From Actinomycetes bacterium (GTDB taxonomy: Bacteria; Actinomycetota; Thermoleophilia; BMS3ABIN01): DNA of 64,000 nt. A program made the position numbers and the translations under genes. Below the pieces are notes generated by a model. That model was not told the DNA's origin. It did no database searches and saw nothing but the letters and a program-made list of their open reading frames with translations. Shown piece by piece: positions 11,408 through 64,000 of the stretch; position 1 is the first letter of the stretch, and each line of letters starts with the position of its first letter. The stretch is from NCBI GenBank assembly GCA_021790115.1, contig JAJYIM010000001.1, positions 23,543 through 87,542 on the forward strand, given 5' to 3'.

Positions 11408-11477
11408 GAAAACCGGGAAAACGTGGGGAAAAACATCCGCAAAAAACCGGGCCGGCCGGCACACCCTGCGCCTTGTC

Positions 11478-11499
11478 CCAATATACATATTGGGACAGG
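11478..11499. promoter_or_regulatory. perfect 10-bp inverted repeat GTCCCAATAT-AC-ATATTGGGAC (candidate operator)
   Basis: Seen directly in the 415-nt divergent intergenic region between the ASKHA gene (start 11407) and the B12-rSAM gene (start 11822). Confidence 0.4.
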
Positions 11500-13288: not shown

Positions 13289-13297
13289 GCGCGCGCG

Positions 13298-14335: not shown

Positions 14336-14339
14336 ACAC

Positions 14340-14435
14340 CGGTTTCGGGTTGCGGGTTTCCCTGTTAACTAATACTCAGCCCGGTTCAAAACCTAAACCT
14401 GGTGTGTGAAAACCCGAAACCCGCAACCCGCAACT
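14340..14435. repeat. heptamer-repeat hairpin (GGTTTCG GGTTGCG GGTTTCC ... AAACCCG AAACCCG CAACCCG)
   Basis: Tandem 7-nt units, with an inverted copy 45 nt downstream, between the GT2 stop and the rSAM start. Confidence 0.5.
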
Positions 14436-14453
14436 TTGTATTAAGTTTTAATA

Positions 14454-15539: not shown

Positions 15540-17221
15540 GCACGGAGGAGCCGCCTGCGCCCCGCGTTATCCAGACCGGCGGCCCTTCCCGCAAAGCGCT
15601 TGCCGCCAGCCTCGCCGCCATCTTTCTGCTCGTGCTGGCTGTCGCCATTCCCTTTTTGGGGCAGGCGCTCCACATCGACGACGCGATTTTCTGGGACTTT
15701 GCCAGCAATAACATTTCTCACCCATTTCAGCAGCATCTTTCCAATTACCCGCTGATGGGCCAGGAAGTGGGGGCGTTCCGGGACACGCACCCTCCTTTTG
15801 ATGAGCTTTACATTTCCGTCATTATGCTGGCAGCCGGCACCACCGCGCCGGAGGCTTTTTTCCATGCCGGATTTATAATTTTCCCGCTGATCGCGGGCGT
15901 TTCCATGTTCTTTCTTGCCCGCCGCTTTACCAAAAGTGCCCTGCTGGCAGCCCTGTTGCTGCTGTCCACGCCGGCAGTGATGGTGCTTTCCCATACCTTA
16001 ATGGGAGATCTGCCAATGACTGCCTTTTGGCTGGCGGCGACCGCCGCCTACATCTACGGGGCTGACCGGGGCAGCCGGCCGCTGCTTGCCCTGTCAAGCT
16101 TACTGATTACCCTGGCGGTTTTTACCGGCTACCAGGCTCTGGCCCTGATCTTGCTGCTGCCGGCATACTGGTGGCTAAAAGCAGGCCGGTTGAGATGGAT
16201 GGCAGTCCTGCCTGTTCTTTTGCCGGCGCTTGCTTTTGCTGCCTACATATGGTTTAACCTGGCCAAGTACGGCGCGCTGCCGCGTTTCTCGCATGCGCAG
16301 GGACTTAGCGTTCAGGAAAACAACTTGATCTCGCGCTTCCAGGGGATGTTCCTGGAGTTGGGCGGCGCATCGGTCTTTCCGCCTTTTTTGGCGGCTGGTT
16401 TTATGCTGCGCCGCAAACGGTACCTGGCGCTGCCGGCCGTGGCGGCCGGCGCAGCGCTGCTTGGCTGGCGCCAGCTCTCGCCGGGTTACCCGCCTGCCAG
16501 CGCCGTCCTGCTGGCTATATTTTTCTTCGCGGGCGCCTGCATGATAACCGGGATAGTTTCCGAGGGGCTGATCCAGATAGCAAACCGGTTCAGGCGCCTA
16601 CCGCTGGACCGTGACTTTTTGTTCCTCGCCCTCTGGCTGGGCTCGATTCTGGCGGCCGTCGTCGGCCTTTTGCCGGATGCCACCGTCCGGTACTACCTTC
16701 CCGTCTTCGCCCCGCTGATTATATTGATGTTCCGGGAGGCAGATGCTGCCCTTTCTTCGCGGCGGCTGCTGCAGGGGCTGGCGGTCGCCGCAATCGGGAC
16801 GTCATTTATCACGGGCCTATGGCTGTCGATGGCCGATTACCAGCTGGCCCAGGCATATAAGGATTTTGTCCTGTCGGTCCAGTCCCGTTATCATCCCGGA
16901 GGCGCCGTCTGGTTTGTGGGCGAGTGGGGCTTTCGCCACTATATGGAACTCGAGGGGTACCGGTACCTTACTTCAGACAGCACCGAGCCTCGAAAAGGCG
17001 ATCTGATAATCGAACCCAGTTACATGCAGCGGCCCGTGGCGCCTTCGCTGTGCAAACGCATGCAGCTGGTGGATGCTCCGGCGGCCACATGGGCAGTGCC
17101 GGTGCGGGTCATGAGCGTGGCGGCGGACGCCGGCTTTTACGGCACTTACTGGGGGCGGCTGCCCTTTACCATCACCACGCAGCCGCTGGAGCGTTTTGAC
17201 GTATACGCAGTAAACAGTTAG
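15431..17221 (+). CDS. polytopic membrane protein, GT-C (ArnT/PMT-like, GT39/83) glycosyltransferase candidate; start uncertain
   Basis: More than 10 predicted TM helices, with a first-loop HIDDAIFWDF motif reminiscent of GT-C DxD/ExD enzymes. ATG 15431 overlaps the preceding gene by 109 nt. A GGAGGAG lies at 15544-15550, but no canonical start follows it. Confidence 0.5.
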   Translation: MLLFTRVLFRHKHSFQSNDVWTADQTVRGAEAAGPVSTEEPPAPRVIQTGGPSRKALAASLAAIFLLVLAVAIPFLGQALHIDDAIFWDFASNNISHPFQQHLSNYPLMGQEVGAFRDTHPPFDELYISVIMLAAGTTAPEAFFHAGFIIFPLIAGVSMFFLARRFTKSALLAALLLLSTPAVMVLSHTLMGDLPMTAFWLAATAAYIYGADRGSRPLLALSSLLITLAVFTGYQALALILLLPAYWWLKAGRLRWMAVLPVLLPALAFAAYIWFNLAKYGALPRFSHAQGLSVQENNLISRFQGMFLELGGASVFPPFLAAGFMLRRKRYLALPAVAAGAALLGWRQLSPGYPPASAVLLAIFFFAGACMITGIVSEGLIQIANRFRRLPLDRDFLFLALWLGSILAAVVGLLPDATVRYYLPVFAPLIILMFREADAALSSRRLLQGLAVAAIGTSFITGLWLSMADYQLAQAYKDFVLSVQSRYHPGGAVWFVGEWGFRHYMELEGYRYLTSDSTEPRKGDLIIEPSYMQRPVAPSLCKRMQLVDAPAATWAVPVRVMSVAADAGFYGTYWGRLPFTITTQPLERFDVYAVNS

Positions 17222-17232
17222 CGCCCTGTTGC

Positions 17233-17251
17233 ACAGGCTAAAAGCCTGTGC
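17233..17251. terminator. terminator-like hairpin CACAGGCT-AAAA-GCCTGTG, part of a 27-nt motif shared with 36421-36447
   Basis: Perfect 8-bp stem between convergent gene ends (17221 and 17274). The identical 27-mer TGCACAGGCTAAAAGCCTGTGCCTACC recurs at 36421. Confidence 0.55.
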
Positions 17252-17273
17252 CTACCAGCCTGTGCCTACCGCA

Positions 17274-18716
17274 TTAACGAACCGCCCGCCGCCGAGCCCT
17301 CAACTTCATCCTGTCCGCGGTCAGCCTCACGAACGCCCGCGTCATGCGGGCATAACGCCTCACATCGTCCGGCCCCTCAATGGAAGCAATCATATTGGCA
17401 AACTGCCTGGGCCGGAAAAAGAAGTTGCTAATCGACCGCCTTTGCATAGCTTGGAGATATTCTTCCGTCAGGCCATTGGGCACGAAGCTAAGATCGCCGC
17501 GCGGATAACCTGTACCCAAATCCAGCCCCTTGTTTACCGTTCCATATCGATCCGCGATCTCGCGGGCCTCTGAACCGGGAGCCAGATACATGACGGCCAT
17601 ATTCATGGAATGCAAAGGCAGCGACTTGGCGAAATCAATTGTCTCCTTGATCGTTTCCGGAGTATCCACCAGATGACCCATAATAAAATACCCGCGGATC
17701 TTGATGCCGGCTTCATCCAGCCACCGGGAGACCCGGATGACAGTTTGTTTGTCCACCGGCTTCCTGATGAACTTCAAAACCTCATCGTTCCCGCTCTCAA
17801 TGCCCACAGATACAAGCCAACAGCCTGCATCTTTCATGGCGCGGATAACCTCCGGATCAAGAGTTTTCAGATTCACGGTCGCCGTCCAGATGATGTCCAG
17901 CTTTCTTTCCTTGATCAACGCGCATATCTTCAGAACCCGCTTCTTGTTTAGCGCGAACGTATCTTCATGAAAGCTGATCTCCCTGGCGTTAAACCTGTTG
18001 ACAACATATTCCATCATATCAACGACGTACTTGGCAGAGTTGGCCCGCCACCGCTTGGTCCAGACTGAGTTGCAGAATATGCATGAAAAGGGACAGCCCC
18101 GGCTGGTGACAAGCGTAATCACCGGGCGGCGCCGGTAAACCAGGAGCTGCGGGTTATAGCCGGCAAGATCGTCAATCAGATGAAAGGCGGGGAACGGCAT
18201 CTCGTCAAGGTTGTCAATATACGGCCGCGGCTCATTTTTTAACATCTTGCCATTTTGGCGGTAATGCAGGCCTCTGACGCTTGTCAGCTCGCCCCCGTTT
18301 TCCAGAGTTTGCACGAGCTCAAGCAGGGTCAGCTCCCCTTCTCCGTCCACAAGATAATCAAAGGAATCGAACTGGGCCAGGTCTTCCGGATAGACAATGA
18401 CATGGGGGCCGCCGGCGACAATGGGAATATCAAATTCCTGCTTCAAATGACGGGCGTTTTCGATCGCCGCGTCTGCGCCAATCGAATAGACGGACAGGCC
18501 GATCAGGCCGGGGCCAAATTCCCTCACCTTGGCGCTTAAACTGTTGTGACTGAGCGGGTATCTGACCGAATCAAGGATCTTGACCGTGTGACCCGCCTGC
18601 TCCAGGACGCTCGCCAGGCACATCAGGCCGTAGGGGGGCAGGTAAGCGCCGATGTCATCCAGGTTGCCATACCGGTTTTCGCCGCTGATGGCGCCGCTTA
18701 TCAGGAGGACCCTCAT
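17274..18716 (-). CDS. B12-binding domain radical SAM protein (class B), second copy
   Basis: N-terminal B12-binding region (YLPPYGLMCLASVLEQAGHTVKILD) and CPFSCIFC (CxxxCxxC). 480 aa. Paralog of the 11822 gene. Confidence 0.8.
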   Translation of the reverse strand: MRVLLISGAISGENRYGNLDDIGAYLPPYGLMCLASVLEQAGHTVKILDSVRYPLSHNSLSAKVREFGPGLIGLSVYSIGADAAIENARHLKQEFDIPIVAGGPHVIVYPEDLAQFDSFDYLVDGEGELTLLELVQTLENGGELTSVRGLHYRQNGKMLKNEPRPYIDNLDEMPFPAFHLIDDLAGYNPQLLVYRRRPVITLVTSRGCPFSCIFCNSVWTKRWRANSAKYVVDMMEYVVNRFNAREISFHEDTFALNKKRVLKICALIKERKLDIIWTATVNLKTLDPEVIRAMKDAGCWLVSVGIESGNDEVLKFIRKPVDKQTVIRVSRWLDEAGIKIRGYFIMGHLVDTPETIKETIDFAKSLPLHSMNMAVMYLAPGSEAREIADRYGTVNKGLDLGTGYPRGDLSFVPNGLTEEYLQAMQRRSISNFFFRPRQFANMIASIEGPDDVRRYARMTRAFVRLTADRMKLRARRRAVR

Positions 18717-51653: not shown

Positions 51654-51731
51654 GGGCGATTAGCTCAGCTGGTTAGAGTGCTGCCCTCACATGGCAGAGG
51701 TCACTGGTTCGAGTCCAGTATCGCCCACCAA
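51654..51731 (+). tRNA. tRNA-Val (anticodon CAC), CCA encoded
   Basis: Manual cloverleaf: GGGCGAT/ATCGCCC acceptor, GCTC-AGCTGGTTA-GAGT D arm, CTGCC-CTCACAT-GGCAG anticodon arm, TTCGAGT T-loop, then ACCA. Confidence 0.88.
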
Positions 51732-51788
51732 ACTCGTCTTATTGGAACTTTTCGAGAGTAGTGGAGTTACCTCGTTTCTGTTGACACT

Positions 51789-52148
51789 TTAGTATTGCCC
51801 AACAGCTTCTACCGGAGCTTCCTCGAGCATTCTTTCATACTCTGCCGGACTCCGGTGTCCCAATGCAGAATGCCGCCTCAGTGGATTGTGGAATCCTTCG
51901 ATATATCTGAACACCGCCAGCCTGGCTTCATCCTTGGTTTTGAAGCGCCTGCGGTGGATGAGTCCGGTCTTGATCGTCCCCATCATCGACTCAGCGGCGG
52001 CGTTGTCACAAGCAACTCCTCGGCTTCCCCTCGAGGCCATGATGCCTGAGCCCTGAAGCGTTTTGCCAAAGACAAGGCTGCGGTATTGGCCGCCCCTGAC
52101 TGAGTGATGAACGTGGCCCGGCCCTGGCTTCCTCATTGTGGCCGCCAT
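51789..52148 (-). pseudogene. IS3-family transposase (OrfB integrase core) 5'-truncated remnant
   Basis: ...HSVRGGQYRSLVFGKTLQGSGIMASRGSRGVACDNAAAESMMGTIKTGLIHRRRFKTKDEARLAVFRYIEGFHNPLRRHSALGHRSPAEYE is the C-terminal half of an rve/DDE integrase. The N-terminal half and OrfA are absent. Confidence 0.7.
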
Positions 52149-52254
52149 TCCCAGGGCGGTTCAACCAGCTATGCGTATGGACAGTTCATCAAGAACGAAT
52201 TCGAGAACTCCGCTTGTGCATCTCAATCAGACTCTTTGCCGCTCAGCTCGAACT

Positions 52255-53403
52255 CTATAGATCATCAAGCAAGCCGGGCAATGCCAGCGCGTATATCTTT
52301 TTCTCAAGCTGAAAGGTCTCTTCACCGGCATGCACGACGTATAGCCGCTGCAGCTTTAAATCTTTAAGAGCGTGGCGCATTGAGGGCGTCACGCGGGGCG
52401 AGCTTGTCAATTTGACTTCATAGCCCATTTTCTTTCTGCCCCTGACTACCAGCAGATCCAGTTCCGCGCCGGCATGCGTCGCCCAGAAAAAACACTCCTC
52501 CCTGGCAAATCCCTGCCGGGAAACAAGCTGCTCGATAACGAACCCCTCCCATGAGGAGCCGATCTTCGGGTGGCGTTCCAGATCGTCGCGGTTTTTTATG
52601 CCAAGCAATGCGTGCAGCAGTCCGCTGTCGGCAATATAAATCTTGGGCGCCTTGACCTGGCGTTTCGATATGTTCTCATGCCAGGGCAGCAGTTGTCTTG
52701 CAACAAGCGCTGAGGACAGTAAATCCAGGTAGTTGCGAACGGTTGTATCGGCTGCCCCAAAAGACCGGCCGAACTCGGAGGCGTTCCATACCTGCCCGTG
52801 ATAATGAGCCAGCATGCTCCAGAACCGGTGCAAGGTAGTTGAGCGAATGGTAATCCCCAACTGCGGCAGGTCCCTTTCGAGAAAGGTGCGGATAAATCCG
52901 CGGCGCCACTCATCGCTTCCCGTATTTGATGAGGCAAGGTATGACCTTGGGAATCCGCCTCTCAGCCACAGCCGCCGGTAGTTCTCAATTCCGACCTCAT
53001 CCAGAGAGAATCCCTTGAGTTCGTGATAAACAATGCGGCCCGCCAGCGATTCGGAGCTCTGGCGAAGAAGTTCGGGAGAAGCGCTGCCCAGCACCAAAAA
53101 GCGCGCCGATGCTCTCGGACTGTCCACAAGCACCCTGAGAACCGGGAAAAGTTCGGGAAGCCTTTGTATCTCATCAATGACCACGAGCCCCTTTAAACCT
53201 TTAAGGGCAAGCATCGGGTCGGCGAGTCGCGCCAGATCCTCCGGGTTCTCCAGGTCAAAATAATTGGCAACGCCGGGTGTTCGTTTTAGGATGGAACGCG
53301 CCAGCGTTGTTTTCCCCACCTGGCGGGCGCCGATGATTCTGACAACTCGGTGGCGTTTCAAGAGCGCAGTAAGCTTATTTAATTCGCGTTGTCTTGCTAT
53401 CAT
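52255..53403 (-). CDS. AAA ATPase with DUF4143 C-terminal domain
   Basis: VVRIIGARQVGKTTL (Walker A). ATPase PF13173 plus DUF4143 architecture. 382 aa. Confidence 0.8.
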   Translation of the reverse strand: MIARQRELNKLTALLKRHRVVRIIGARQVGKTTLARSILKRTPGVANYFDLENPEDLARLADPMLALKGLKGLVVIDEIQRLPELFPVLRVLVDSPRASARFLVLGSASPELLRQSSESLAGRIVYHELKGFSLDEVGIENYRRLWLRGGFPRSYLASSNTGSDEWRRGFIRTFLERDLPQLGITIRSTTLHRFWSMLAHYHGQVWNASEFGRSFGAADTTVRNYLDLLSSALVARQLLPWHENISKRQVKAPKIYIADSGLLHALLGIKNRDDLERHPKIGSSWEGFVIEQLVSRQGFAREECFFWATHAGAELDLLVVRGRKKMGYEVKLTSSPRVTPSMRHALKDLKLQRLYVVHAGEETFQLEKKIYALALPGLLDDL

Positions 53404-53786
53404 TTGGTCAAATATACATTGAAATCTCGGTTATTGTAACAGAAATATCAATGTTTGTGAATGTATCGACGTAAGCGGGACACGCATTGCTTGGGGCACG
53501 AAACAAGAACAGTGAGCTATACTCCATTCTGGTGTATGACACCATCCTGATCAAGCGGTTCACTTGCCGTAAGAGAAAAGGCCCTGGGCCCCGACCACCC
53601 CAATACGGCCCAAAGCCCAAACAACCTGGCGGGGCTGCTTTTAAGAGCAAGGGCGACTACGCCGGCGCCGAGCCCCTCGCCGCCGGGCGCTTGCCATTCT
53701 GGAAAAGAATTTGGGGGAGTTACATCCGGATACGAAAATTGTGAGGCATAAGCTCGAATCCCTAAGGGGCCGACCAAATCTCACAA

Positions 53787-54290
53787 TCAGATTTCATTAA
53801 AATTGCGCAATCCCCATCCGGGCGGCAACCCGGCGGCGTCGAGCGCAAACTTCTCCTCGCGCGGACCGACGAAGTCGATGATCACGCGGATCTCCGTGTA
53901 TTTCCTGATTGCCTGGCGCGCGAATACCAGCAGGCAGGCGAGCGGGCTCATGTTCATGCTCCATTCCTGCCGGGCCAGTCTTTCCATGGCGAAGACGAAC
54001 GCCTCCTGAACCATGTCCTCGGCGCCGGCGTCCTGCGGCTCCCGGGGGCAGTTATCCCTAACGTAACCGAGCAGGGCGTCATGGTATTTGGAGTAGCAGG
54101 ATTCAAACAGGAGCTGGCGCTCGTCAAAATCCAGCTCCTGTCCGCGGCGCAGCTTTGCCAGCGCGCTACGCAACTGATCATTCTTGATACCTGTGAGCGC
54201 TTGCCTCTTCATGCCCTGGATGTGACAATCCCTGAAACCGGGTATCTTCATAAACGTGAGCGGATCCGCTCCAGAATTCCTTTGACCCAT
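53787..54290 (-). CDS. sigma-70 region-2-like protein lacking region 4 (likely truncated ECF sigma)
   Basis: ...YHDALLGYVRDNCPREPQDAGAEDMVQEAFVFAMERLARQEW...LLVFARQAIRKYTEIRV resembles ECF sigma region 2. Confidence 0.4.
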   Translation of the reverse strand: MGQRNSGADPLTFMKIPGFRDCHIQGMKRQALTGIKNDQLRSALAKLRRGQELDFDERQLLFESCYSKYHDALLGYVRDNCPREPQDAGAEDMVQEAFVFAMERLARQEWSMNMSPLACLLVFARQAIRKYTEIRVIIDFVGPREEKFALDAAGLPPGWGLRNFNEI

Positions 54291-54574
54291 TCTTCCTCAT
54301 TGACATAATTATGGTTTTTTGACGTTTGGTACGCTTCCTCGGCCAAGGGCAGCGCTTCCCGTGGCCGGTCCAGCTCATCATTCAGCAATATCGCTTGATT
54401 TGTCAAGGAATAGACCAGGGATTGCGGTATCCCCGGCTCGCGGCAGATGCGCTCCTGTTCCTTGTGGAGGGCCATGGCCCCGTCCAGGTCGCCGCGGTCC
54501 TTGAGGATAAGCCCCTGGCTTCCCTGTTTTTCAATCTTTATTTTCCCCGCGACTGCGATTTCGATGATAAGCAT
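54248..54574 (-). CDS. TPR-repeat fragment
   Basis: ...ALPLAEEAYQTSKNHNYVNEEEW... is short and overlaps the sigma-like ORF. Probably a decayed gene. Confidence 0.3.
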   Translation of the reverse strand: MLIIEIAVAGKIKIEKQGSQGLILKDRGDLDGAMALHKEQERICREPGIPQSLVYSLTNQAILLNDELDRPREALPLAEEAYQTSKNHNYVNEEEWVKGILERIRSRL

Positions 54575-54714
54575 GTGGCCGACATGGCCTACGCGGCGAC
54601 GGCAGACCTGATTGCTGCTGCCCGCGCTGGTTCCGGCTGAAAAGCGGCCGCAGCCATGGGCGGTTCTGCCCAGGATATATTGAAATAATTTATCAGTTAT
54701 GATATTTTATTGCT

Positions 54715-55350
54715 ATGAAATGGGAATCATTACTGGAGATTGCCGGCGACGAACCTGTTTTTTCTTCCGGCCTGCTCCTTTCCGGAAATGAGTCTACCGG
54801 CCAAGTGCGGCTGCAGCTATCGCGCTGGGTACGGGCGGGCCGCCTGATTCAGCTCAGACGCGGCCTCTACGCCCTGGCGCCGGCCTGGCGCAAGATTGAG
54901 CCCCATCCCTTTCTGATCGCCAACCGGCTTCAGCGCGGCTCATACGTGAGTCTGCAATCAGCACTTGCATACCACGGCATCATACCGGAGCATGTGCCGG
55001 TCGCAACCAGCGTTGGGCCGGGCCGTCCCGGGACGCTGAGAAATCCTCTTGGCACTTATCAATTCAGGCACCTGGCTTATGGGATGCTCTTTGGCTATGC
55101 GCGGGTTGAAGTTGCCGCAACCCAATTTGTCTTTATCGCCTCGGCGGAGAAGGCGTTGCTGGACCTGGTATATCTGACGCCGGGCGCGGATTCACCGGAC
55201 TACCTTGGCGAGCTGCGCCTGCGAAATGACGGGGTAATGGATAGGCGTCTGCTCAAGGCGCTGGCGCAACGCAGCGGCAGGCCCAAACTTGTCCGGGCCG
55301 CCCGGACAGTCATGGCGCTCCTGGCGGGAAAGGAAGGAAAACCTTTATGA
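54715..55350 (+). CDS. abiEi: type IV toxin-antitoxin system AbiEi-family antitoxin/transcriptional regulator
   Basis: SGLLLSGNESTGQVRLQLSRWVRAGRLIQLRRGLYA is the AbiEi_4 N-terminal wHTH. 211 aa. Overlaps the next gene by 4 nt. Confidence 0.8.
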   Translation: MKWESLLEIAGDEPVFSSGLLLSGNESTGQVRLQLSRWVRAGRLIQLRRGLYALAPAWRKIEPHPFLIANRLQRGSYVSLQSALAYHGIIPEHVPVATSVGPGRPGTLRNPLGTYQFRHLAYGMLFGYARVEVAATQFVFIASAEKALLDLVYLTPGADSPDYLGELRLRNDGVMDRRLLKALAQRSGRPKLVRAARTVMALLAGKEGKPL

Positions 55351-56159
55351 AAGAGTATCTCCGGCAACTGATGCGACAGGAGGCTGGTGGCCTTATCCGC
55401 GAATATCTTGTGCGTGAATACCTGCAGGCGAGGATACTTGAGTCCCTGCAGGATCATGGGGTCTTCCTGCGGTGGGCCTTCCTTGGGGGAACAGCCCTGC
55501 GTTTCCTGTATTCCATCCCCCGTTTTTCAGAAGACCTTGATTTTTCGCTCATCACTGCCGGTGAGGAAACGCGTTTCGGGGAGGTGATGGCTAAAGTGAA
55601 ACGCACGCTGGAGCGCGAAGGTTACCAACTGGAGATCAAGGTCAGAGGCGGAAAGACGGTCGCCTCGGCAATGGTCGGGTTTACCGGGCTGCTTTATGAG
55701 CTTGGCCTCTCGCCACATGTGCACCAGAAACTTTCCGTCAGGATAGAGGTGGATACAAACCCGCCCGCGGTGGCGGTGCTTGAGACAACCATTGTTCGCC
55801 GCCACGTGACGCTCAACCTTTGCCATTACGACAGAGCCTCTCTGCTGGCGGGAAAGCTGCACGCAGTATTTGGCAGGCCCTGGACAAAAGGCCGTGATCT
55901 TTTCGATCTGGCCTGGTATCTCGCCGAACGGACCTGGCCGGGGCCGAATCTTGCGTTGCTCAATGCGGCCCTGTCACAAACAGGCTGGACCGGGCCGGCC
56001 ATGACGGCGGCCAACTGGCGCCGGCAGGCATGGAAGCGGCTAGCTTCCTTGGACTGGGAGCGGGCCCGTGAGGATGTTCGGCCGTTTCTGGAGCGAGAAC
56101 GCGACCTCGATCTTGTGAGCGCCGAAACGCTTGGCCAGTTGCTGCTTGAGGCAGGATGA
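55347..56159 (+). CDS. abiEii: AbiEii/AbiGii nucleotidyltransferase toxin (DUF1814)
   Basis: FLGGTALRFLYSIPRFSEDLDFS is the canonical DUF1814 NTase motif. 270 aa. Confidence 0.85.
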   Translation: MKEYLRQLMRQEAGGLIREYLVREYLQARILESLQDHGVFLRWAFLGGTALRFLYSIPRFSEDLDFSLITAGEETRFGEVMAKVKRTLEREGYQLEIKVRGGKTVASAMVGFTGLLYELGLSPHVHQKLSVRIEVDTNPPAVAVLETTIVRRHVTLNLCHYDRASLLAGKLHAVFGRPWTKGRDLFDLAWYLAERTWPGPNLALLNAALSQTGWTGPAMTAANWRRQAWKRLASLDWERAREDVRPFLERERDLDLVSAETLGQLLLEAG

Positions 56160-56268
56160 GAATTTTTCTTTCCGACGATGCAATTGGTTTCAACCCGGTT
56201 CAGTTGTACAAATATCTAACTTAGATTTTCTTTCTTTTCCTTTCCTGGTAATTAACTAAAAAACGACG

Positions 56269-56574
56269 TTGACAATTTTAACATTGTGCAGTAAGATTTG
56301 TAAGAATATCTTTACGTCCACGGGTTCGATTTTGGAAAAAGGCAACTGCAAAAAACAAAGGATCGTTTACGGCGTAGTCACCGTCAGCGCTAAGGGTCAA
56401 ATCGCCATCCCCGTGCCGCTCCGCACTGATCTTGACATAAAACAGGGCGACCAGCTGTTTCTGCTTAAACGGAAAGACGAAGCTGGTTTCGTGGCCGTCA
56501 AGCTGGAGGAGATCGACAGCCTTATGCATCAGATCCAGGCAGATGATGATTTTTTAAACAAGGGAAGGAAGTGA
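56269..56574 (+). CDS. AbrB/MazE/SpoVT family DNA-binding protein
   Basis: VTVSAKGQIAIPVPLRTDLDIKQGDQLFLL is a swapped-hairpin AbrB domain. The real start may be TTG at ~56332. Confidence 0.6.
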   Translation: MTILTLCSKICKNIFTSTGSILEKGNCKKQRIVYGVVTVSAKGQIAIPVPLRTDLDIKQGDQLFLLKRKDEAGFVAVKLEEIDSLMHQIQADDDFLNKGRK

Positions 56575-56617
56575 ACCAATAAGCAAAATTAACAGAGAGT
56601 GGCATCTGGCAAACATA

Positions 56618-57256
56618 ATGCCAAAGAATCCCTCCCATGAGCAGCGGATGCAATGGCACGCCGAGCACCTTCGACATTGCCATTGCCATCCGGTTTCCCC
56701 AAAGCTGCAAAAAGAACTGGACGAATTTTTAAATGAACAAAATTCTGCAGCAACTTAACGGCGGCGATTTGAGGTCAGACGGCAAAGCCAATGAGGTCGC
56801 TACGCAGATAATTGAGAGGCCCGAACTGCTTGCTGACCTAATGGAAGGTTTTGATTCAGACAACGAAATGATCAGGATGAGAACCGCCCATGCCGTTGAG
56901 GTTATCTCCAGAAAAAATGGGCAGCTGCTGGAAAGTTCCAAGTCAAAGCTCATTGACCACGCAGGAAATGACCCCCTCCCCGAGACCAGATGGCACCTGG
57001 CCCAGATTTTCGGCAACCTGCCGCTCTCTGACAGGGAAACAGAGACTGTGCTACCGATACTTTACGGCTATCTGAAGGACGGCACGATTTTGGTCAGATC
57101 CTGAACTATTGTGGGACTGGCAAATATCGCCAATCAAAATGCTCGCTTTAGACAGGAAATCCGGCAAAAAATAGCTGAACATGAAGATGACAAAAGCCCG
57201 GCGGTCAGAAACAGGGTGCGGCAGGCTTTGTCCGATCTTAAGTCCAGCGGGTCCTG
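56618..57256 (+). pseudogene. DNA alkylation repair enzyme-like (HEAT-repeat) gene broken into three pieces (frameshift near 56740 and in-frame TGA at 57102)
   Basis: Piece 1, 56618-56758: MPKNPSHEQRMQWHAEHLRHCHCH...LDEFLNEQNSAAT. Piece 2, 56733-57104: MNKILQQLNGG...KDGTILVRS. TGA follows, and the same frame continues: TIVGLANIANQNARFRQEIRQKIAEHEDDKSPAVRNRVRQALSDLKSSGS. Confidence 0.45.
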
Positions 57257-57326
57257 AGCCATAATATTGACCAAAAGATATTAAAGTGTTATTTAGTTAA
57301 AGCAACATTAAGAAAGGAGGTAAAAA

Positions 57327-57464
57327 ATGGCAACATGCAAAGAGTGCAAACATTACCAGCCGGTTGACGAGAGCCAGGGTGACTGTTTTGGTCATCAGGT
57401 GCCGGCGGACCGGGACGTGGGCCAGTGCCCCGCAAGTGCCTTTGAGCCTAAAGAGAGGCCTTAG
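57327..57464 (+). CDS. small Cys-rich peptide (45 aa), CxxC...C...C
   Basis: AAGGAGG lies 8 nt before ATG 57327. MATCKECKHYQPVDESQGDCFGHQVPADRDVGQCPASAFEPKERP. Too short for the ORF track. Confidence 0.45.
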   Translation: MATCKECKHYQPVDESQGDCFGHQVPADRDVGQCPASAFEPKERP

Positions 57465-57484
57465 TTATAATGACCAAAATATAA

Positions 57485-58528
57485 ATGAAGCAAGTTTTCA
57501 AGTCATTTGACAACTGCCCCGCCCTGGACGGATACCATTGCCAGACGAATTCACTGGCCAAGATATTTCATCACGCCGGTCATCCCTTATCAGAGGACAT
57601 GATTCTGGGCCTTGGAGCCGGGATGGGCTTCATTTACTGGCAGATGAAAATTGGCGGGACAGATTCAGTCTTTATCGGCGGCCGGGGCAACACGAAGGAT
57701 TTCTTTGGTGACTTGGGCAAAAGGACGGGCGTAAAGATCGAAACGGTCTCGACCTCGAGCGCCAAAAAGGCAGAGGCAGCCCTGTTGGAGAAGCTGAAAA
57801 ATCAAGAGCCAGTCATGCTTTTTGGCGACATGGGCTTTTTGCCCTGGTTTGAGTTTCCGGTTGAATATCATTTTGGCGGCCACACCTTCGTTGTCTGCGG
57901 TTATGACGGCAAGGACACTGCCTTGGCATCCGATATGGACCAAGCGGCGGCGGGGCTAAAGCAGGGATTCTATTATCCTGTCACCTTGGAACAACTTGCT
58001 AAAGCGCGGGGTTCAACCTTCAAGCCGTTTCCGCCCAAAAACGTGATGCTGGAGTTTGATTTCAGAAGCTTCCATAAGCCGCGCCCGGCAGACATCATTT
58101 CTGCCATAATGCAAACGGCAGAGTCTCAGCTCAACCCTCCCATAAAGAACATTGGCGTCAAGGGGCTCAGGCATACGGCCAAAATGATCGCCAAGTGGCC
58201 CGATTTGTTTGATGATCATACTCTGAGAATGAACCTCTTCCTGCTGTATATATTCTTTGAGATCGGCGGCACCGGCGGCGGCTGTTTCCGCTACATGTAC
58301 GCCAGATTCTTAAAAGAGGCGCAGCGGATAACCGGGAACAAAGAGCTGGGCGAGGCCGCGAAAATATTCTCGGAGTCAGGCAGGAAATTTACCGAAATCG
58401 GGCTGATGTTCAAGGACGCCGAGACCATCAGCGATCCCGCAAAAAAGATACTGGAAGCTTCGCAAGGATTTTCTCTGGTTGCTGACCTGGAAGAGCGAGC
58501 ATATACTTGTCTATTAGAGACTGTTTGA
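57485..58528 (+). CDS. BtrH N-terminal domain (papain/C39-like fold) + DUF4872 protein
   Basis: 347 aa. N-terminal FDNCPALDGYHCQTNSLAKIF... is typical of the BtrH_N family (butirosin acyltransferase-like cysteine hydrolase fold). Confidence 0.65.
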   Translation: MKQVFKSFDNCPALDGYHCQTNSLAKIFHHAGHPLSEDMILGLGAGMGFIYWQMKIGGTDSVFIGGRGNTKDFFGDLGKRTGVKIETVSTSSAKKAEAALLEKLKNQEPVMLFGDMGFLPWFEFPVEYHFGGHTFVVCGYDGKDTALASDMDQAAAGLKQGFYYPVTLEQLAKARGSTFKPFPPKNVMLEFDFRSFHKPRPADIISAIMQTAESQLNPPIKNIGVKGLRHTAKMIAKWPDLFDDHTLRMNLFLLYIFFEIGGTGGGCFRYMYARFLKEAQRITGNKELGEAAKIFSESGRKFTEIGLMFKDAETISDPAKKILEASQGFSLVADLEERAYTCLLETV

Positions 58529-58549
58529 CATAAACACAGGAGCGCTACA

Positions 58550-58687
58550 ATGGTCACTCCCCTGGACCGGTGCGTGCTTTATGTATTTCGCTGCGCCAAT
58601 TATTATGCCGCACACAAGAGGCACGACCCGGAGTTGCTTAAATGGTGGAACTGGAAAGACGAGAAGATGCAAAACGATAAGGACTGA
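58550..58687 (+). CDS. small ORF (45 aa), hypothetical
   Basis: AGGAG lies 7 nt before the ATG. MVTPLDRCVLYVFRCANYYAAHKRHDPELLKWWNWKDEKMQNDKD. Confidence 0.3.
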   Translation: MVTPLDRCVLYVFRCANYYAAHKRHDPELLKWWNWKDEKMQNDKD

Positions 58688-59436
58688 CGCCGTCATCGGC
58701 AGCACCAACAAAAATGCCGCTAAGCGTGGGTGATTTTTATGGTCCCTTTCAACTGATCGAGGCTGTCGAGGGGAAGAAATACTGATTCAGGTTAAAAAAA
58801 CTTCGATTGTTTGATCTGGAGGCCGGCTACCGGTTAGAGCAAAATGGAGAAGATACTCTCCTGAGTTTACTGCTCATATCCTCCAATCCCAACCTAATTC
58901 AGCGCTGCTATTGGCGGCTGGTAAAACCAATTCACAGCGTGTTGGCAGCAAAAACCCTTAAAACAATCAAAGCCGAAGTTGAAAGCTCCATCAACGTTAC
59001 ACATTCCTCGTAAATCTTTTCAACCTCATCATCAATAACGGCGACTTCCACATGCTAGGCGGATTGACCCCGAGAAAGTCAGATGCCGGCTCGATATGCT
59101 GGTTGCTGCCATTGGGAAGCCCCGAGGAGCAGCCCCGAGCCAGGAAGCTGGCCGCGAGACAGCGCATCTTAGAATCTGTCAATGATTCGCCAGGGGCAGG
59201 AGTAATCCCGCCCTTTCTCTGACCGTATCCTTGCTTGCCCGGGTTCTGGGCGCACTTTTTCCTCTGGGGCAAGTGATGACAAATGTAACAGAATAGCAAT
59301 ATTGCGTCAGTCAAATCAAGGCTGTTCTTGAAGCCGGTGAAGGATAAGTGTTGCGCGAAAGCCGGGCGTTAAGTGGTAGAATCACGGTCGTGAGAAGCCC
59401 TGAGACATTGATCCAAAAAACTGACAAGGGGGCGGC

Positions 59437-61989
59437 TTGCGGCAGGTTGACATAGCATCCATCAGCGGCCTTTCCGAGCCGCAGGCAAGGGAGCGCCTCA
59501 GGACTGAAGGCTACAACGAGCTGCCCGCGGCCGGCACCCGCAACATTCTCAGGATTGCCCTTGACGTTGTGTGCGAGCCGATGTTCCTGCTGCTGATCGC
59601 CGCCGGCAGCCTCTACCTTTTTCTTGGCAACCTTGAAGAAGCGCTCCTTTTGTTATTTTTCGTTTTTGTGATCATGAGCATCACTTTCTACCAGGAGCGC
59701 AAAAGCGAGCGCGCCCTGGAGGCGCTCAGGGGGCTGTCCAGTCCGCGGGCGCGCGTCATCCGCGGCGGCAATGTCTGCCGCATCGCCGGGCGGGAAGTGG
59801 TAAGGGGCGACATCCTCATCGTTGATGAAGGTGACCGAGTCCCCGCCGATGCAAAGCTTTCCTTCTGTGACAACCTGTACGTGGACGAGTCGCTGCTAAC
59901 CGGCGAATCAGTTCCAGTGCGCAAGGCCACCGGCGGCGCCCGTCAAGCCAGGCCAGGCGGAGACGGGCAACCGTTTATCTATTCGGGAACGCTTGTTGTC
60001 CGGGGCCGGGGCGTGGCCAAGACAGTTAAAACGGGCAGCGCCACACAGATGGGGCAGATTGGCAAATCCCTCGAGAGGATCGAACCCAAGGATACCGTTC
60101 TTCAGATTCAAACCCGGCGCCTGGTGCGCAACCTGGCTGCTATCGGCATCTCGCTCTGCGTTTTTGTTGCCATCGTTTACGGCGCCACCCGGGGCGGCTG
60201 GCTGGCTGGCCTGCTGGCGGGCATAACACTGGCAATGGCGACCCTGCCGGAGGAGTTCCCTGTCGTTCTCACCGTCTTTCTGGCTTTGGGCGCCTGGAAG
60301 ATATCGCAGAGCCGTGTCCTCACCAGGCGGCTGCCGGCAGTTGAGACTCTGGGCGCGGCGACGGCACTCTGTGTGGACAAGACGGGCACGCTGACCCTCA
60401 ATCAAATGGCGGTTGGCAGGCTCATGGCAAAAGGCAAGGTCTTTGACTTGAATAGCTTAACTGAGATCAAAGGGATTCCGGAAGAATTCCACCCTTTGAT
60501 TGAATATGGCATTCTCGCCAGCCAGCGAGACCCTTTTGACCCGATGGAGAAAGCCATTCGCCGCCTCGGCGAGCACGAGCTGGCGAAAACTGAGCACCTG
60601 CATGATAATTGGCAGCTTGTCCAGTCCTACTCGCTCTCGGAAAAGCTGTTGGCGCTGTCTCATGTCTGGCAATCACCAGGTGGCGACGAATACGTCATCG
60701 CCGCCAAAGGCGCCCCTGAGGCAATTGCCGATTTATGCCATTTTGACGGCGGTCAGCTGCAGGAGATGGACGGGCAAATCAACCAACTGGCGGAGTCAGG
60801 ATTAAGAGTGCTTGGAGTGGCACAAACCCGCTTCCGCAAAACGGCGATCCTGCCATCAAAGCAGCACGATTTCGATTTTGAGTTTGTCGGGCTGCTGGGT
60901 CTTTCGGATCCGTTGAGGCCGGAAGTGCCGGAAGCTATCAGGGAGTGCTACCGCGCCGGCGTGCGGGTAATCATGATCACGGGAGACTACCCTGGCACAG
61001 CAATGAACATAGCGCGGCAGATAGGCCTGCACGGCTGCGAGCGCGTCATCACCGGCCCGGAGCTGGAACAAATGCCGGCGGCAGAGCTGGCCCGCCGCAT
61101 TAGCTCCACCAACATTTTTGCCCGTGTTGTTCCGGAGCAAAAGCTGCGGCTAGTCCAGGCCCTCGGCGCCAATGGCGAAATAGTAGCGATGACGGGCGAT
61201 GGCGTGAATGACTCGCCGGCCCTGAAGGCAGCCAACATTGGCATCGCCATGGGCGGACGCGGGACCGATGTCGCCCGCGAATCAGCGGCGCTGGTGCTGC
61301 TCGACGACGATTTCTCTTCAATCGTAAGGGCAGTCCGGCTGGGTCGGCAGATTTATGATAATATTAAAAAGGCGATGACGTATATCGTCGCCGTTCATGT
61401 GCCGGTTGTCGGCCTGACAATCGTGCCGGTGCTGCTGGGTTGGCCACTAATCCTGCTGCCGGTGCATATAGTCTTCCTTGAATTGATAATTGATCCTGCC
61501 TGTTCCATAGTTTTTGAAGCCGAGCCAGAGGAGGCTGACGTGATGCGGCGCCCTCCCCGCGCGCCGGACGAGCCGCTCTTCGGCCGGCGCTCTCTTTCGC
61601 TCAGCCTGCTCCAGGGGGCCAGCGTCCTGGCAATCGTACTGTTTTTCTTCGCTTTCTTCTATTATCGCGGGCATGGCCTGGGCACAATCCGCGCCATGAC
61701 TTATACAACGCTTATTTTCGCCAACCTGGGGCTGATTTTGACGAACCGATCCTGGTCCAAAACCATATTTCAGACCATCCGCACCAGGAACCGCGCCCTC
61801 TGGCTGCTCTTGGGAAGCGTTCCCGTCTTCCTTGGCCTGGTGCTCTACGTGCCGTTCCTGAAAAGCCTCTTTCTCTTCGAGCAGCTTAGGCCCATTGACC
61901 TGGCAGCCTGTTTTGTGGCTGGTTTTGTCAGCATTGCCTGGTTTGAGGTACTTAAGTTCCTGCAGGCAAGAACTCCAAAGGCGGCTTAG
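59437..61989 (+). CDS. cation-transporting P-type ATPase (type II, Ca2+/Mg2+-like)
   Basis: CVDKTGTLTLNQM (DKTGT), MTGDGVNDSPALKAANIGIAMG and TGES. AAGGGGG lies 6 nt before the TTG start. 850 aa. Confidence 0.9.
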   Translation: MRQVDIASISGLSEPQARERLRTEGYNELPAAGTRNILRIALDVVCEPMFLLLIAAGSLYLFLGNLEEALLLLFFVFVIMSITFYQERKSERALEALRGLSSPRARVIRGGNVCRIAGREVVRGDILIVDEGDRVPADAKLSFCDNLYVDESLLTGESVPVRKATGGARQARPGGDGQPFIYSGTLVVRGRGVAKTVKTGSATQMGQIGKSLERIEPKDTVLQIQTRRLVRNLAAIGISLCVFVAIVYGATRGGWLAGLLAGITLAMATLPEEFPVVLTVFLALGAWKISQSRVLTRRLPAVETLGAATALCVDKTGTLTLNQMAVGRLMAKGKVFDLNSLTEIKGIPEEFHPLIEYGILASQRDPFDPMEKAIRRLGEHELAKTEHLHDNWQLVQSYSLSEKLLALSHVWQSPGGDEYVIAAKGAPEAIADLCHFDGGQLQEMDGQINQLAESGLRVLGVAQTRFRKTAILPSKQHDFDFEFVGLLGLSDPLRPEVPEAIRECYRAGVRVIMITGDYPGTAMNIARQIGLHGCERVITGPELEQMPAAELARRISSTNIFARVVPEQKLRLVQALGANGEIVAMTGDGVNDSPALKAANIGIAMGGRGTDVARESAALVLLDDDFSSIVRAVRLGRQIYDNIKKAMTYIVAVHVPVVGLTIVPVLLGWPLILLPVHIVFLELIIDPACSIVFEAEPEEADVMRRPPRAPDEPLFGRRSLSLSLLQGASVLAIVLFFFAFFYYRGHGLGTIRAMTYTTLIFANLGLILTNRSWSKTIFQTIRTRNRALWLLLGSVPVFLGLVLYVPFLKSLFLFEQLRPIDLAACFVAGFVSIAWFEVLKFLQARTPKAA

Positions 61990-62142
61990 AACCGGGTCAG
62001 TTTTGCCGTTGGTGCTGATGATTGGTCAACCATCTCCTTTCAGGAAGGATCAGCGGTAACGAAGATTCCCTCCCGCTTTCAGGGAGAGGATCAGAGTGAC
62101 GGGTTTAAAGCCCGCCGATAGAGTTCAAAATAACGTCAAACA

Positions 62143-62472
62143 ATGTTCGGACGGAAGCTATTGACCAATGTAGATTACAACCGCGATTCTTATAATGCCT
62201 GCCTCTGTGGCGGCTGCCCGGTGATCCGCAGCAGCGCCTGCATCCACAGTCAGGAAGAGGCGCTGGCGCCCAGGACGGAGGCTGTTGAAAGAGAAGGACT
62301 GATGCCGCCGCCGGAAATTATGCCGGGCATTTACTGCGCCATCGGCAAGTCTGCTTGTGAAGATTTAAGCAGCAGGAAAAAATGCCTCTGCCCGGCATGC
62401 CCGGTGCAAATCGAGGCCGACCTCAGTAAAAGTTATTATTGCCGCTTGGGCAGCGCGGCCGAGGTGAGCTGA
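62143..62472 (+). CDS. DUF2769 domain protein (two CxCxxCP...YYCxxGS modules)
   Basis: ACLCGGCPVIRSSAC... and KCLCPACPVQIEADLSKSYYCRLGSA. 109 aa. Confidence 0.7.
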   Translation: MFGRKLLTNVDYNRDSYNACLCGGCPVIRSSACIHSQEEALAPRTEAVEREGLMPPPEIMPGIYCAIGKSACEDLSSRKKCLCPACPVQIEADLSKSYYCRLGSAAEVS

Positions 62473-62864
62473 TTTTGGCTAGAATCAAGCTGAACATCAG
62501 CAATTATGGAAAGTGCCTGTGCCCGGTTTGCCCCGTTCAGCTGAAAAGCCCGTGCATCGCCGCAAAAAATGAAAACTGGCGCGAGCAGAGGAAGGCCATT
62601 GGGGAGATCCTCAAGGAATATCCTGATCATCCCGAAGCATATCAAATGGACATGGAAGAACTGGAAAAAAGCGGCGTCGGGATCAGGCATCACTTTTCTC
62701 AGCCCCGCCCGGATGAGATGCAGGAGCTCTACTGTTCAGAAGCGGTTGGCAAGTCAAACTGCGATGACCTGGATGAAGAAAAAATGTGCCAGTGCCAGGA
62801 CTGCGCGGTCTGGCAGCAAAACAGGCTGGGCCGGACTTACTTCTGCCTCAGCGGCAGCGCCTGA
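62439..62864 (+). CDS. DUF2769 domain protein (two modules); start TTG 62439 or TTG 62475
   Basis: KCLCPVCPVQLKSPCIAAKN... and MCQCQDCAVWQQNRLGRTYFCLSGSA. Confidence 0.7.
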   Translation: MPLGQRGRGELILARIKLNISNYGKCLCPVCPVQLKSPCIAAKNENWREQRKAIGEILKEYPDHPEAYQMDMEELEKSGVGIRHHFSQPRPDEMQELYCSEAVGKSNCDDLDEEKMCQCQDCAVWQQNRLGRTYFCLSGSA

Positions 62865-62925
62865 GAGAACTTTTTGTTCGAGAGGTTTTGGCCCATAGCC
62901 GAAAGTTTTTAGGGGATTTCCCTGA

Positions 62926-62954
62926 TTGAATTTTAATTTGACTGGTCCTATAAT
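62926..62954 (+). promoter_or_regulatory. near-consensus sigma-70 promoter TTGAAT-17-TATAAT
   Basis: TTGAAT at 62926-62931, a 17-nt spacer, then TATAAT at 62949-62954. Lies ~45 nt upstream of the small peptide gene. Confidence 0.5.
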
Positions 62955-62998
62955 GATTAGGTTTGCTATTTGATCAATCCTACGAAGGGGGTGCGGCG

Positions 62999-63124
62999 GT
63001 GAGTGACAGCATGATTTACGCGCGGCCGGAGCTGAACAAGCTGGGTAATGTCATTGACGTAACTTTTGACGACAGTGGCTGGAGCTGCAGCAATTCGGGT
63101 GACAGTTGCGATAACGATGACTGA
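62999..63124 (+). CDS. small acidic Cys-containing peptide (41 aa from GTG; 37 aa from ATG 63011)
   Basis: AAGGGGG lies 7 nt before GTG 62999. (M)SDSMIYARPELNKLGNVIDVTFDDSGWSCSNSGDSCDNDD. A strong promoter precedes it and a strong terminator follows. Not in the ORF track (<60 aa). Confidence 0.5.
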   Translation: MSDSMIYARPELNKLGNVIDVTFDDSGWSCSNSGDSCDNDD

Positions 63125-63158
63125 GAACAGGAAACGACCTGCGTAAATACAAGAATTT

Positions 63159-63186
63159 CGCGGCCTCTTCGGAGGCCGCTTTTTTG
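63159..63186 (+). terminator. rho-independent terminator
   Basis: GCGGCCTC-TTCG-GAGGCCGC, then TTTTTTG. Confidence 0.75.
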
Positions 63187-63331
63187 TATTTGTTTCATTT
63201 TGTTTAAGCCGGGTGGTTTTCCGTACTTTGGTTTGACCTGGGAAGCTTCTTCTCCTATTATTTTTCTTCGCGGGAGACTGACTGGTTTGCTTTCCCTTCG
63301 GGGCAGTCTTTCGTACAATTGAGTCTGGCGC

Positions 63332-63409
63332 GGGGGCGTAGTTCAGTCGGTTCAGAACGCCGGCCTGTCACGCCGGAGGTCGCGGGTTCGAGTCCCGTCG
63401 CTCCCGCCA
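63332..63409 (+). tRNA. tRNA-Asp (anticodon GTC), CCA encoded
   Basis: Manual cloverleaf: GGGGGCG/CGCTCCC acceptor (one G-U), GTTC-AGTCGGTTCA-GAAC D arm, CCGGC-CTGTCAC-GCCGG anticodon arm, GCGGG-TTCGAGT-CCCGT T arm, then G-CCA. Confidence 0.88.
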
Positions 63410-63620
63410 GCCAATGCCCTTGCCAGCACAAGGGGGTTCTGGCTGCCCTATTTAATCCTTCTCCTTTTTCCAAAAAGCCATCATTTGCCCAGACCAAAAG
63501 CCTGCGCCTGCCGACTTGTTTTTCTCTGTTTCGGTTCTTTCAGGAGGCGGCGCGTTTACGCCTTGCCGGCAAGGGTAAGATTTCGCTGGCACAAAAAAAC
63601 TGATCCGGAGGGCAACCATC

Positions 63621-63830
63621 ATGCCAGTCCCCAATTCACAAGAAAACATGTCCAGATGCGTTTGCGGCTCCTGCCCGTCATACCTTGAGGGGGACAGCGG
63701 ATTTTTCTGCTCCCTCGGCAAGAGCCAGAAAAGCCTGGAGAAAAAAGGTTGTATCTGCAACACTTGCGGCAACTGGGAAGAGGTTGGCTTAAGCGCTGGT
63801 TACTACTGCGCTGAGGGCAGGGCAGAATAG
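63621..63830 (+). CDS. DUF2769 domain protein
   Basis: GGAG lies 10 nt before the ATG. RCVCGSCPSYLEGDSGFFCSLGKS and GCICNTCGNWEEVGLSAGYYCAEGRA. 69 aa. Confidence 0.7.
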   Translation: MPVPNSQENMSRCVCGSCPSYLEGDSGFFCSLGKSQKSLEKKGCICNTCGNWEEVGLSAGYYCAEGRAE

Positions 63831-64000
63831 TGAAGGCATCCGACATAGCTTCCGGCCACGGGGTAGTCGGCGAGATCAACGGCAGGCCGGTAGCCGTCTA
63901 CAATGCCGGCGATCGGCTGGTGGTGCTGGAGAATATTTGCACCCATATGGGTTGTCAGACTGACTGGAATGACTCCGGCGATAGCTGGGACTGTCCCTGC
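63830..64000 (+). CDS. Rieske [2Fe-2S] domain protein (N-terminal part; continues past window end)
   Basis: GTG overlaps the preceding stop. VKASDIASGHGVVGEINGRPVAVYNAGDRLVVLENICTHMGCQTDWNDSGDSWDCPC. CTHMGC (CxHxGC box 1) and CPC (start of the CPCHGS box 2). Confidence 0.6.
   Translation, partial: MKASDIASGHGVVGEINGRPVAVYNAGDRLVVLENICTHMGCQTDWNDSGDSWDCPC

Follow-up and report, generated by a model that had tools for sequence, protein, structure and literature searches.

A solitary small-peptide gene of uncultured Actinomycetota with a lasso-type leader motif and a non-canonical core-like segment

In the stretch of DNA analysed here (64,000 nucleotides of contig JAJYIM010000001.1 from the Actinomycetes bacterium assembly GCA_021790115.1, hereafter the window), a small gene on the forward strand at 62999-63124 encodes an acidic peptide of 41 residues. 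The gene carries expression signals of its own and belongs to a small family that is under selection at the protein level. The N-terminal half of the peptide has the leader motif of actinobacterial lasso peptides in the lasso register, and no maturation enzymes are encoded nearby. Tentatively, and with somewhat less than even confidence, we read the peptide as a precursor of the type found among peptides that are ribosomally synthesised and then modified after translation (RiPPs), with recognition through a PqqD-type domain, processing by enzymes encoded elsewhere and a non-canonical core. What is new is that a lasso-type leader is joined to a non-canonical core in a gene with an orphan location. 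Public protein sets already contain the gene, as the identical 41-residue protein (P0001) is found among the NCBI and ENA gene calls with no name attached.

The five members of the family align as Y-x2-P-E-L-x2-L-G-N-[VI]-[VI]-x-[VI]-T-F-x4-W, followed by a variable tail of Asp, Ser, Gly and Cys. The product in the window is (M)SDSMIYARPELNKLGNVIDVTFDDSGWSCSNSGDSCDNDD, in which the leader-like segment Y7-F23 (YARPELNKLGNVIDVTF; 63017-63067, forward strand) ends with the Thr-Phe pair. When numbered from the end of this pair, the residues Y(-17), P(-14), L(-12), G(-8), T(-2) and F(-1) are invariant in all five members. In lasso precursors, the YxxPxL motif spans positions -17 to -12 and Thr occupies -2 (PMC10368454). 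The motif is a hallmark of actinobacterial lasso leaders and is bound by the PqqD-like B1 recognition element (PMC6784204). In the present family, YxxPxL is found at -17 to -12 in every member, and the Thr, which is 15 residues past the Tyr, falls at -2 in every member provided that cleavage takes place after Thr-Phe. Gly at -8 is also part of the lasso leader motif. Among the 18,950 models of NCBIfam, NF033521 (lasso_leader_L3, lasso RiPP family leader peptide-containing protein) is the only one matched by several members. Three of the five match it, with model positions 1-16 aligned to the segment from Tyr to Thr and the Thr at position 16. The full leader motif has no background occurrence in the 615,716 six-frame residues of all DNA examined.

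The core-like segment D24-D41 (DDSGWSCSNSGDSCDNDD; 63068-63121, forward strand) begins after the Thr-Phe pair and contains an invariant Trp at +5 (63080-63082 in the window), a Cys 2-5 residues further on (63086-63088), a short acid-free run of small residues and an Asp-rich tail. A second Cys (63107-63109) is located in the Asp-rich tail of four members, and the remaining one has a single Cys. Besides Cys, the tail contains 8-10 acidic residues, with His in two members, and the C-terminus is Asp-Asp in four of the five. Both the length and the sequence of the segment vary between members, and its net charge ranges from -5 to -7. The peptides are 60% and 51% identical where the neighbouring orthologues are 81-90% and 69-80% identical, and the divergence is concentrated in the tail while the leader is conserved. 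The AlphaFold2 model, built on an alignment of three sequences only, has no autonomous fold (predicted local distance difference test score 61, predicted template modelling score 0.15). The sequence-only reading had described a leader-like N-terminal half and a Ser/Cys/Asp-rich C-terminal half and had likened the peptide to a RiPP precursor or a small metal-binding or regulatory peptide. The division into a leader-like and a modifiable half is borne out by the lasso-type motif in its canonical register, the sub-threshold lasso_leader_L3 matches and the hypervariable C-terminal half.

The family is very rare and, as far as can be told from the databases searched, apparently undescribed. A word-index search with the peptide across 5.8 billion protein clusters returned only the peptide itself, and such searches with the peptide and with a three-sequence profile together retrieved just the three called members. 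An exhaustive HMMER scan of 1.84 billion representatives gave two short relatives, P0007 (48 residues) and P0008 (55 residues). Its other matches are long repetitive proteins with many matched stretches, which were judged to be compositional and rejected as relatives. A profile scan of the GTDB species genomes added two further copies, in the loci L007 and L008, which no gene call had covered, and brought the family to five (P0001, P0007, P0008 and the open reading frames in L007 and L008). A scan of the GTDB genomes with the 53-residue open reading frame had no match. The JGI metagenomes have no match to the profile or to a 57-nucleotide degenerate pattern of the invariant codons, and no family member was found in viral contigs or, by tblastn, in plasmids. 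The profile search of the PDB gave nothing beyond a chance match of 10.6 bits, and Pfam has no match for any of the five members at E <= 10. Two more distant contigs labelled Thermoleophilia, reached with adenine deaminase as an anchor, stopped short of the tRNA-Asp region and added no members. The hosts of all members are uncultured Actinomycetota known as metagenome-assembled genomes (GCA_024275795.1 for P0008 and GCA_021787475.1 for L007, with L008 on contig JAJYXB010000008.1), and the orthologues of one neighbouring gene are labelled Thermoleophilia.

The gene is a real protein-coding gene under purifying selection. Five genomes, which represent at least three sub-lineages, have its reading frame intact. 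The invariant Pro, Glu, Leu, Gly, Asn, Thr and Phe use differing synonymous codons across the five genes, with most changes in the third positions, and over a conserved block of 22 codons each pair of genes has 5-10 differing codons that are synonymous, those of invariant residues included. Such variation at invariant residues means that conservation acts on the protein. The sequence-only reading had proposed a stand-alone small coding gene that would fall if relatives lacked a conserved frame. The four homologues with a conserved frame and synonymous changes at invariant residues uphold the proposal. Two of the members come from a single metagenome sample (ENA ERZ27233565), P0007 on contig k141_1145740 (L005) and the window peptide on contig k141_1216499. 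They belong to different sub-lineages; the flanks and the tRNA promoter of P0007 resemble those of L008 and not those of the window, and related peptide-bearing populations therefore share one habitat.

The peptide gene is predicted to form its own transcription unit with a strong promoter. The promoter is of the sigma-70 type (62926-62954, forward strand), with a -35 box TTGAAT at 62926-62931, a 17-nucleotide spacer and a -10 box TATAAT at 62949-62954, and agrees with the consensus at 10 of 12 positions. A promoter scan of 60000-64000 gave 5 promoter-like sites compared with 1.5 +/- 1.2 in shuffled sequences. The Shine-Dalgarno sequence AAGGGGG (62985-62991, forward strand) is located 7 nucleotides 5' of a GTG codon at 62999, from which 41 codons run to a TGA stop at 63122-63124. 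An in-frame ATG at 63011, 19 nucleotides from the ribosome-binding site, would give a product of 37 residues. The GTG is the likelier start because the spacing from the ribosome-binding site suits it, public gene callers chose it and the relatives begin at the equivalent upstream position. The transcription unit ends with an intrinsic terminator (63160-63185, forward strand; GCGGCCTC-TTCG-GAGGCCGC followed by TTTTTT), the hairpin of which (63160-63179) has an 8-bp stem with 7 G-C pairs and is the dominant structure in the predicted fold of the region. The promoter, ribosome-binding site, reading frame and terminator had all been pointed out from the letters of the window, and each was found where it had been placed. 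The gene had also been called invisible in the track of open reading frames of at least 60 residues. This is true of that track only, and public callers already call the exact 41-residue product.

The same signals accompany the other members of the family. The -10 box TATAAT and a Shine-Dalgarno sequence are present in all five loci, and in the four relatives the Shine-Dalgarno sequence that precedes the start codon is G-rich. Full near-consensus promoters are found in three loci, namely the window, L005 (TTGACT-17-TATAAT, 11 of 12 positions) and L008 (TTGACA-17-TATAAT, 12 of 12). Canonical intrinsic terminators are found in four (the window, L005, L007 and L008), while L006 has a GC hairpin 3' of the gene without a T-run. 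Expression of the peptide genes is judged likely from these signals, because TATAAT occurs in all five, a near-consensus full promoter in three and a canonical intrinsic terminator in four. The promoter spacer (62932-62948 in the window) is, by reading, conserved in all five loci as ..CTGAC[T/C]GG[T/C]CC-TATAAT while the -35 boxes diverge, and may serve as an operator or extend the promoter.

The precursor reading is put forward because the family combines coding selection, a leader in lasso register, matches to NF033521, a motif with zero background, bipartite conservation, the lack of a fold and likely expression. In the proposed mechanism, the N-terminal half (Y-x2-P-E-L-x2-L-G-N-x4-T-F) would act as the leader of an intrinsically unstructured, precursor-type peptide and would bind in the form of a strand to a RiPP recognition element (RRE) of the PqqD type, in the fashion of lasso leaders. 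The Thr-Phe pair would mark the site of a leader peptidase, and the C-terminal 18 residues would receive the modification and be set free as a small, strongly acidic product. The processing enzymes would be encoded elsewhere in the genome, and the core chemistry would differ from canonical lasso cyclisation in the canonical register. One candidate chemistry is a macrolactam between Trp-1 and the first Asp with a ring-to-tail disulfide, which would need the removal of four further residues, and another is a cross-link between Trp and Cys. A more specific form of this reading, which we regard as unlikely, makes the family a new type of RiPP in which a lasso-style leader would be bound by an RRE and cut after Thr-Phe, and a non-lasso core would be modified at Trp and Cys by maturases acting in trans, in these anaerobes maybe radical SAM enzymes, to give a small polyanionic product. 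The modification may then be an unprecedented one, such as a cross-link between Trp and Cys of a bacterial kind or a macrolactam of unusual size, and the invariant linkage to tRNA-Asp might reflect Asp-tRNA-dependent chemistry on the Asp-rich tail.

Several results weigh against a precursor of this kind, and some of them concern the core. In the canonical register, core positions 7-9 are free of Asp and Glu in each of the five members; acidic residues are found at 1, 2 and 12 onwards, 1, 2 and 13 onwards, 12 onwards, 13 onwards, and 4 and 11 onwards, respectively. Since no acidic residue is present at 7-9, the macrolactam that defines the class cannot form in this register. Core residue 1 is likewise unconserved (D, D, V, S and H). 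The three relatives that match NF033521 score 13.7, 13.9 and 15.4 bits, under its cutoff of 19 bits, and neither the window peptide nor P0007 matches it at E <= 10. The exhaustive HMMER search retrieved none of the known lasso precursors. The family fails membership of the canonical lasso precursors.

The location of the gene counts in the same direction, as lasso precursors normally cluster with their enzymes. The genes called on the source contig between -63 and +20 kb (83 kb) include no PqqD/RRE protein, Transglut_core peptidase, Asn_synthase cyclase or RRE-bearing radical SAM enzyme. All of these classes are also missing within 10-20 kb in the four other genomes (L005, L006/L011, L007/L012 and L008), where the shortest reach of the survey is 6.8 kb, bounded by the contig end of L005. 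Contigs were extended with the syntenic adenine deaminase as an anchor, and the extensions carry no maturase. The co-occurrence of radical SAM or peptidase genes with homologues, which had been suggested as a check on the RiPP interpretation, is not seen at the surveyed loci.

Two candidate partners in the window were considered and rejected. The radical SAM cluster at 11.8-18.7 kb is HpnJ-like, lacks an RRE, is about 45 kb away and is absent from the other loci examined. This cluster (11822-18716) comprises two HpnJ-like B12-binding radical SAM enzymes, a GT2 glycosyltransferase, a SPASM-like radical SAM protein of 361 residues and a protein of 529 residues without a family; all NCBIfam matches in the cluster are far under the cutoffs. 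The BtrH_N/DUF4872 gene 5 kb upstream was rejected as the peptidase, as it is DarH-like, of the kind found in dialkylresorcinol and xanthomonadin pigment clusters, and is not conserved near other members. Its product (57485-58528) has a DarH-like acyltransferase match of 137.7 bits against a cutoff of 300 and a weak match to Peptidase_C39_2. A Cys-rich open reading frame of 45 residues, MATCKECKHYQPVDESQGDCFGHQVPADRDVGQCPASAFEPKERP, is located at 57327-57464 with its stop 20 nucleotides 5' of the BtrH_N/DUF4872 gene, and a second, called open reading frame of 45 residues (58550-58687; Pfam Cdd1) lies 3' of it. The stretch 57327-58687 may be a module of small peptides and a papain-fold enzyme.

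That the family consists of canonical lasso precursors merely separated from their B1/B2/C cluster is quite unlikely in our judgement, even though the leader motif and register agree and NF033521 is weakly matched. With the invariant Trp taken as core residue 1, the five members have their first Asp at position 8, 9, 8, 9 and 7, and thus all at 7, 8 or 9, and four of the five have one Cys in the ring and one in the tail, as in class III. This register, however, moves the Thr to -6 and puts an unconserved residue at -2 (S, V, P, A and P), contrary to the published rule. Its fit is also weak evidence because the tail is acid-rich (about 40% acidic) and, by our own estimate, would give such a fit by chance in about 30% of five-member sets of this kind. 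The canonical register has no Asp or Glu at 7-9, and no cluster is present in the surveyed 83 kb. An alternative to be taken more seriously, although we hold it to be rather doubtful, is that the 41-residue peptide works as translated, as an unmodified acidic microprotein whose likeness to lasso leaders is convergent or vestigial. Its Asp/Cys(/His) tail could, for example, be a site for cations or metals, or its conserved, beta-strand-like N-terminal half could dock to a partner protein. A private strong promoter and terminator, together with the fixed adjacency to tRNA-Asp in all five loci, look more like those of a housekeeping microprotein than of a secondary-metabolite gene, which tells against a precursor, and no maturase is found near the gene in the surveyed stretches of any of the five genomes. 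The acidic, Cys-containing tail, with His in two members, and the metal-related neighbours at some loci (a P-type ATPase, DUF2769 genes, a cupredoxin and a multicopper oxidase) point the same way. Yet these neighbours are not kept across the five loci, the tail is variable and in one member lacks the second Cys, which leaves no fixed metal site, and no fold is predicted. Moreover, convergence is hard to argue for an exact five-residue match to the lasso register with zero background occurrences.

The gene could be functionally coupled to tRNA-Asp, with the Asp-codon-rich frame serving as a translation-sensing attenuator or the peptide as a scaffold or substrate of an Asp-tRNA-dependent reaction, which we consider improbable. 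The coupling would account for the presence of tRNA-Asp(GTC) downstream on the same strand in all five loci though the outer genes differ, for the Asp-rich tail with its Asp-Asp end in four of the five, and for the terminator that sits between the reading frame and the tRNA. In the minimum free energy structures of four loci, however, the terminator is a free-standing hairpin and there is no conserved alternative pairing to the Asp codons. The attenuator model was rejected on these folding results, as there is no mutually exclusive terminator and antiterminator over regulatory codons. The tRNA also has its own TTGACC-17-TATTAT promoter in four loci, L006 has a gene for 213 residues on the opposite strand in between, an attenuator needs no N-terminal motif of 17 residues conserved as protein, and no aminoacyl-tRNA-using enzyme is encoded nearby. 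Rearrangements would seldom hit a gap of only about 200 nucleotides, and linkage by itself is therefore weak evidence. Tight ancestral linkage is its simplest explanation, although it does not account for the coincidence with the Asp-rich tail. Finally, the locus could be non-functional, either a small RNA with a chance open reading frame or the decaying relic of a lost gene cluster. A tiny orphan gene of which 5.8 billion protein clusters and the scanned DNA collections yielded only five members might invite such an explanation, but it is hardly credible with a frame intact in five genomes of at least three sub-lineages, 5-10 synonymous codon differences per pair over the 22-codon block, a conserved Shine-Dalgarno sequence and start codon, and no Rfam match. 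No Rfam family matches the peptide gene, and the sole matches are two tRNAs.

The tRNA-Asp(GTC) gene (63332-63409, forward strand) is the only neighbour common to all five loci, and it is always on the same strand as the peptide gene. The distance between the two is 183-271 nucleotides in four loci and 762 nucleotides in L006, where the opposite-strand gene for 213 residues lies between them. The promoter of the tRNA, TTGACC-17-TATTAT (63233-63261, forward strand), is the same in L005, L007 and L008, and is located about 70-105 nucleotides 5' of the mature tRNA (window 63233-63331; L005 7873-7967; L007 10228-10330; L008 10277-10409). A second conserved box, GTACAAT, is found about 14 nucleotides 5' of the tRNA in the window, L005 and L008. 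These boxes suggest tandem promoters or a processed leader.

Three DUF2769 genes surround the pair on the forward strand, two back to back upstream (62143-62472 and about 62475-62864) and one downstream of the peptide gene and tRNA-Asp (63621-63830). The sequence-only reading had named both tRNA-Asp and these Cys-rich genes as neighbours, and both are present. The link to DUF2769 that it suggested is not conserved, as DUF2769 genes flank the peptide gene in the window and L007 only. Together with a Rieske protein and a P-type ATPase, they are found beside it only in the window and in L007, its closest relative, and are absent at the loci of P0007, P0008 and L008, so that there is no conserved co-occurrence. 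The context of DUF2769 and metal genes was therefore rejected as a functional clue. On the whole, the coding gene and the bipartite peptide of that reading stand, while the link to DUF2769 is not supported and no maturases co-occur at the surveyed loci. Among the DUF2769 paralogues (window 62143-63830 and L010 2252-2530), the downstream copy directly precedes the Rieske protein gene, an arrangement kept solely in L007/L012.

Patches of housekeeping genes (FixABCX/ETF, STAS, ferredoxin, adenine deaminase, PGI and Nuo) recur among the loci, which implies a common lineage with rearranged surroundings. In L005, a type I restriction-modification system (HsdM/HsdS) and a Kiwa pair (KwaA/KwaB) are located directly 3' of tRNA-Asp (8236-12602), consistent with a defence island inserted at the tRNA. 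Further upstream in the window, the stretch 51654-58700 looks like an integrated island, with an integrase (rve) fragment, an AAA_14/DUF4143 ATPase, an AbiEi/AbiEii toxin-antitoxin pair (54715-56159) and an AbrB/MazE-like gene after a tRNA-Val (51654-51730).

The genome mining of lasso peptides and of most other RiPPs starts from enzymes and seeks adjacent precursors, and solitary precursor-like genes are thus systematically missed. The present family is of this kind, with a textbook lasso leader and a core unable to close the textbook ring, and about 80 kb around it contain no cluster. If the peptide is processed, either the recognition and cleavage machinery of lasso peptides is reused for other chemistry or the rules for lasso cores are wider than assumed, and a small polyanionic Trp/Cys peptide is the product of a gene with a strong promoter in an actinobacterial lineage that is anaerobic and uncultured. 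If no processing takes place, the leader motif alone is unreliable for the prediction of RiPP precursors, and the family is a useful negative control for precursor-centric mining. Interest in the family would rise with the demonstration of a trans-acting maturase and of new Trp/Cys chemistry.

Among known systems, PqqA, the precursor of pyrroloquinoline quinone, is likewise very short. It starts with aromatic-x-x-Pro, contains a Gly...Val-Thr segment and is bound by PqqD, whose domain type recognises it and is the archetype of the RRE fold. The present family differs from it in its internal spacing, has no Glu-x3-Tyr pair and has Phe-x4-Trp after the Thr instead of x-Tyr. There is no PqqA match in Pfam or NCBIfam at E <= 10, and no pqqBCDE genes are nearby. 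Trans-encoded precursors offer a parallel to the location of the gene. The ProcA peptides of the prochlorosins are scattered in the genome and are served by one ProcM. One study (PMC8960859) documents unclustered RiPP components for lanthipeptides. The prochlorosins and lanthipeptides are another RiPP class with another type of leader; the likeness is that of a precursor-like gene far from any modifying enzyme. In class III lasso peptides, one disulfide joins the ring and the tail (PMC6784204). Four of the five members resemble the class III type represented by BI-32169, with one Cys in a ring of 7-9 residues and one in the tail, if the core starts at the Trp. This is a pattern of sequence alone; the cleavage would fall four residues past Thr-Phe, and one member has a single Cys. 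The LasA-type precursors of Actinomycetota (the lariatin, fusilassin and siamycin families) differ from the present family in that its core is unusually acidic, with an invariant Trp at +5, an unconserved residue 1 and no acid at 7-9, its NF033521 scores are below the cutoff and B1/B2/C/D genes are absent within tens of kb. What the two have in common is a short ribosomal peptide from Actinomycetota hosts, the register Y(-17)xxP(-14)xL(-12) with Thr(-2), and a conserved leader that precedes a variable core.

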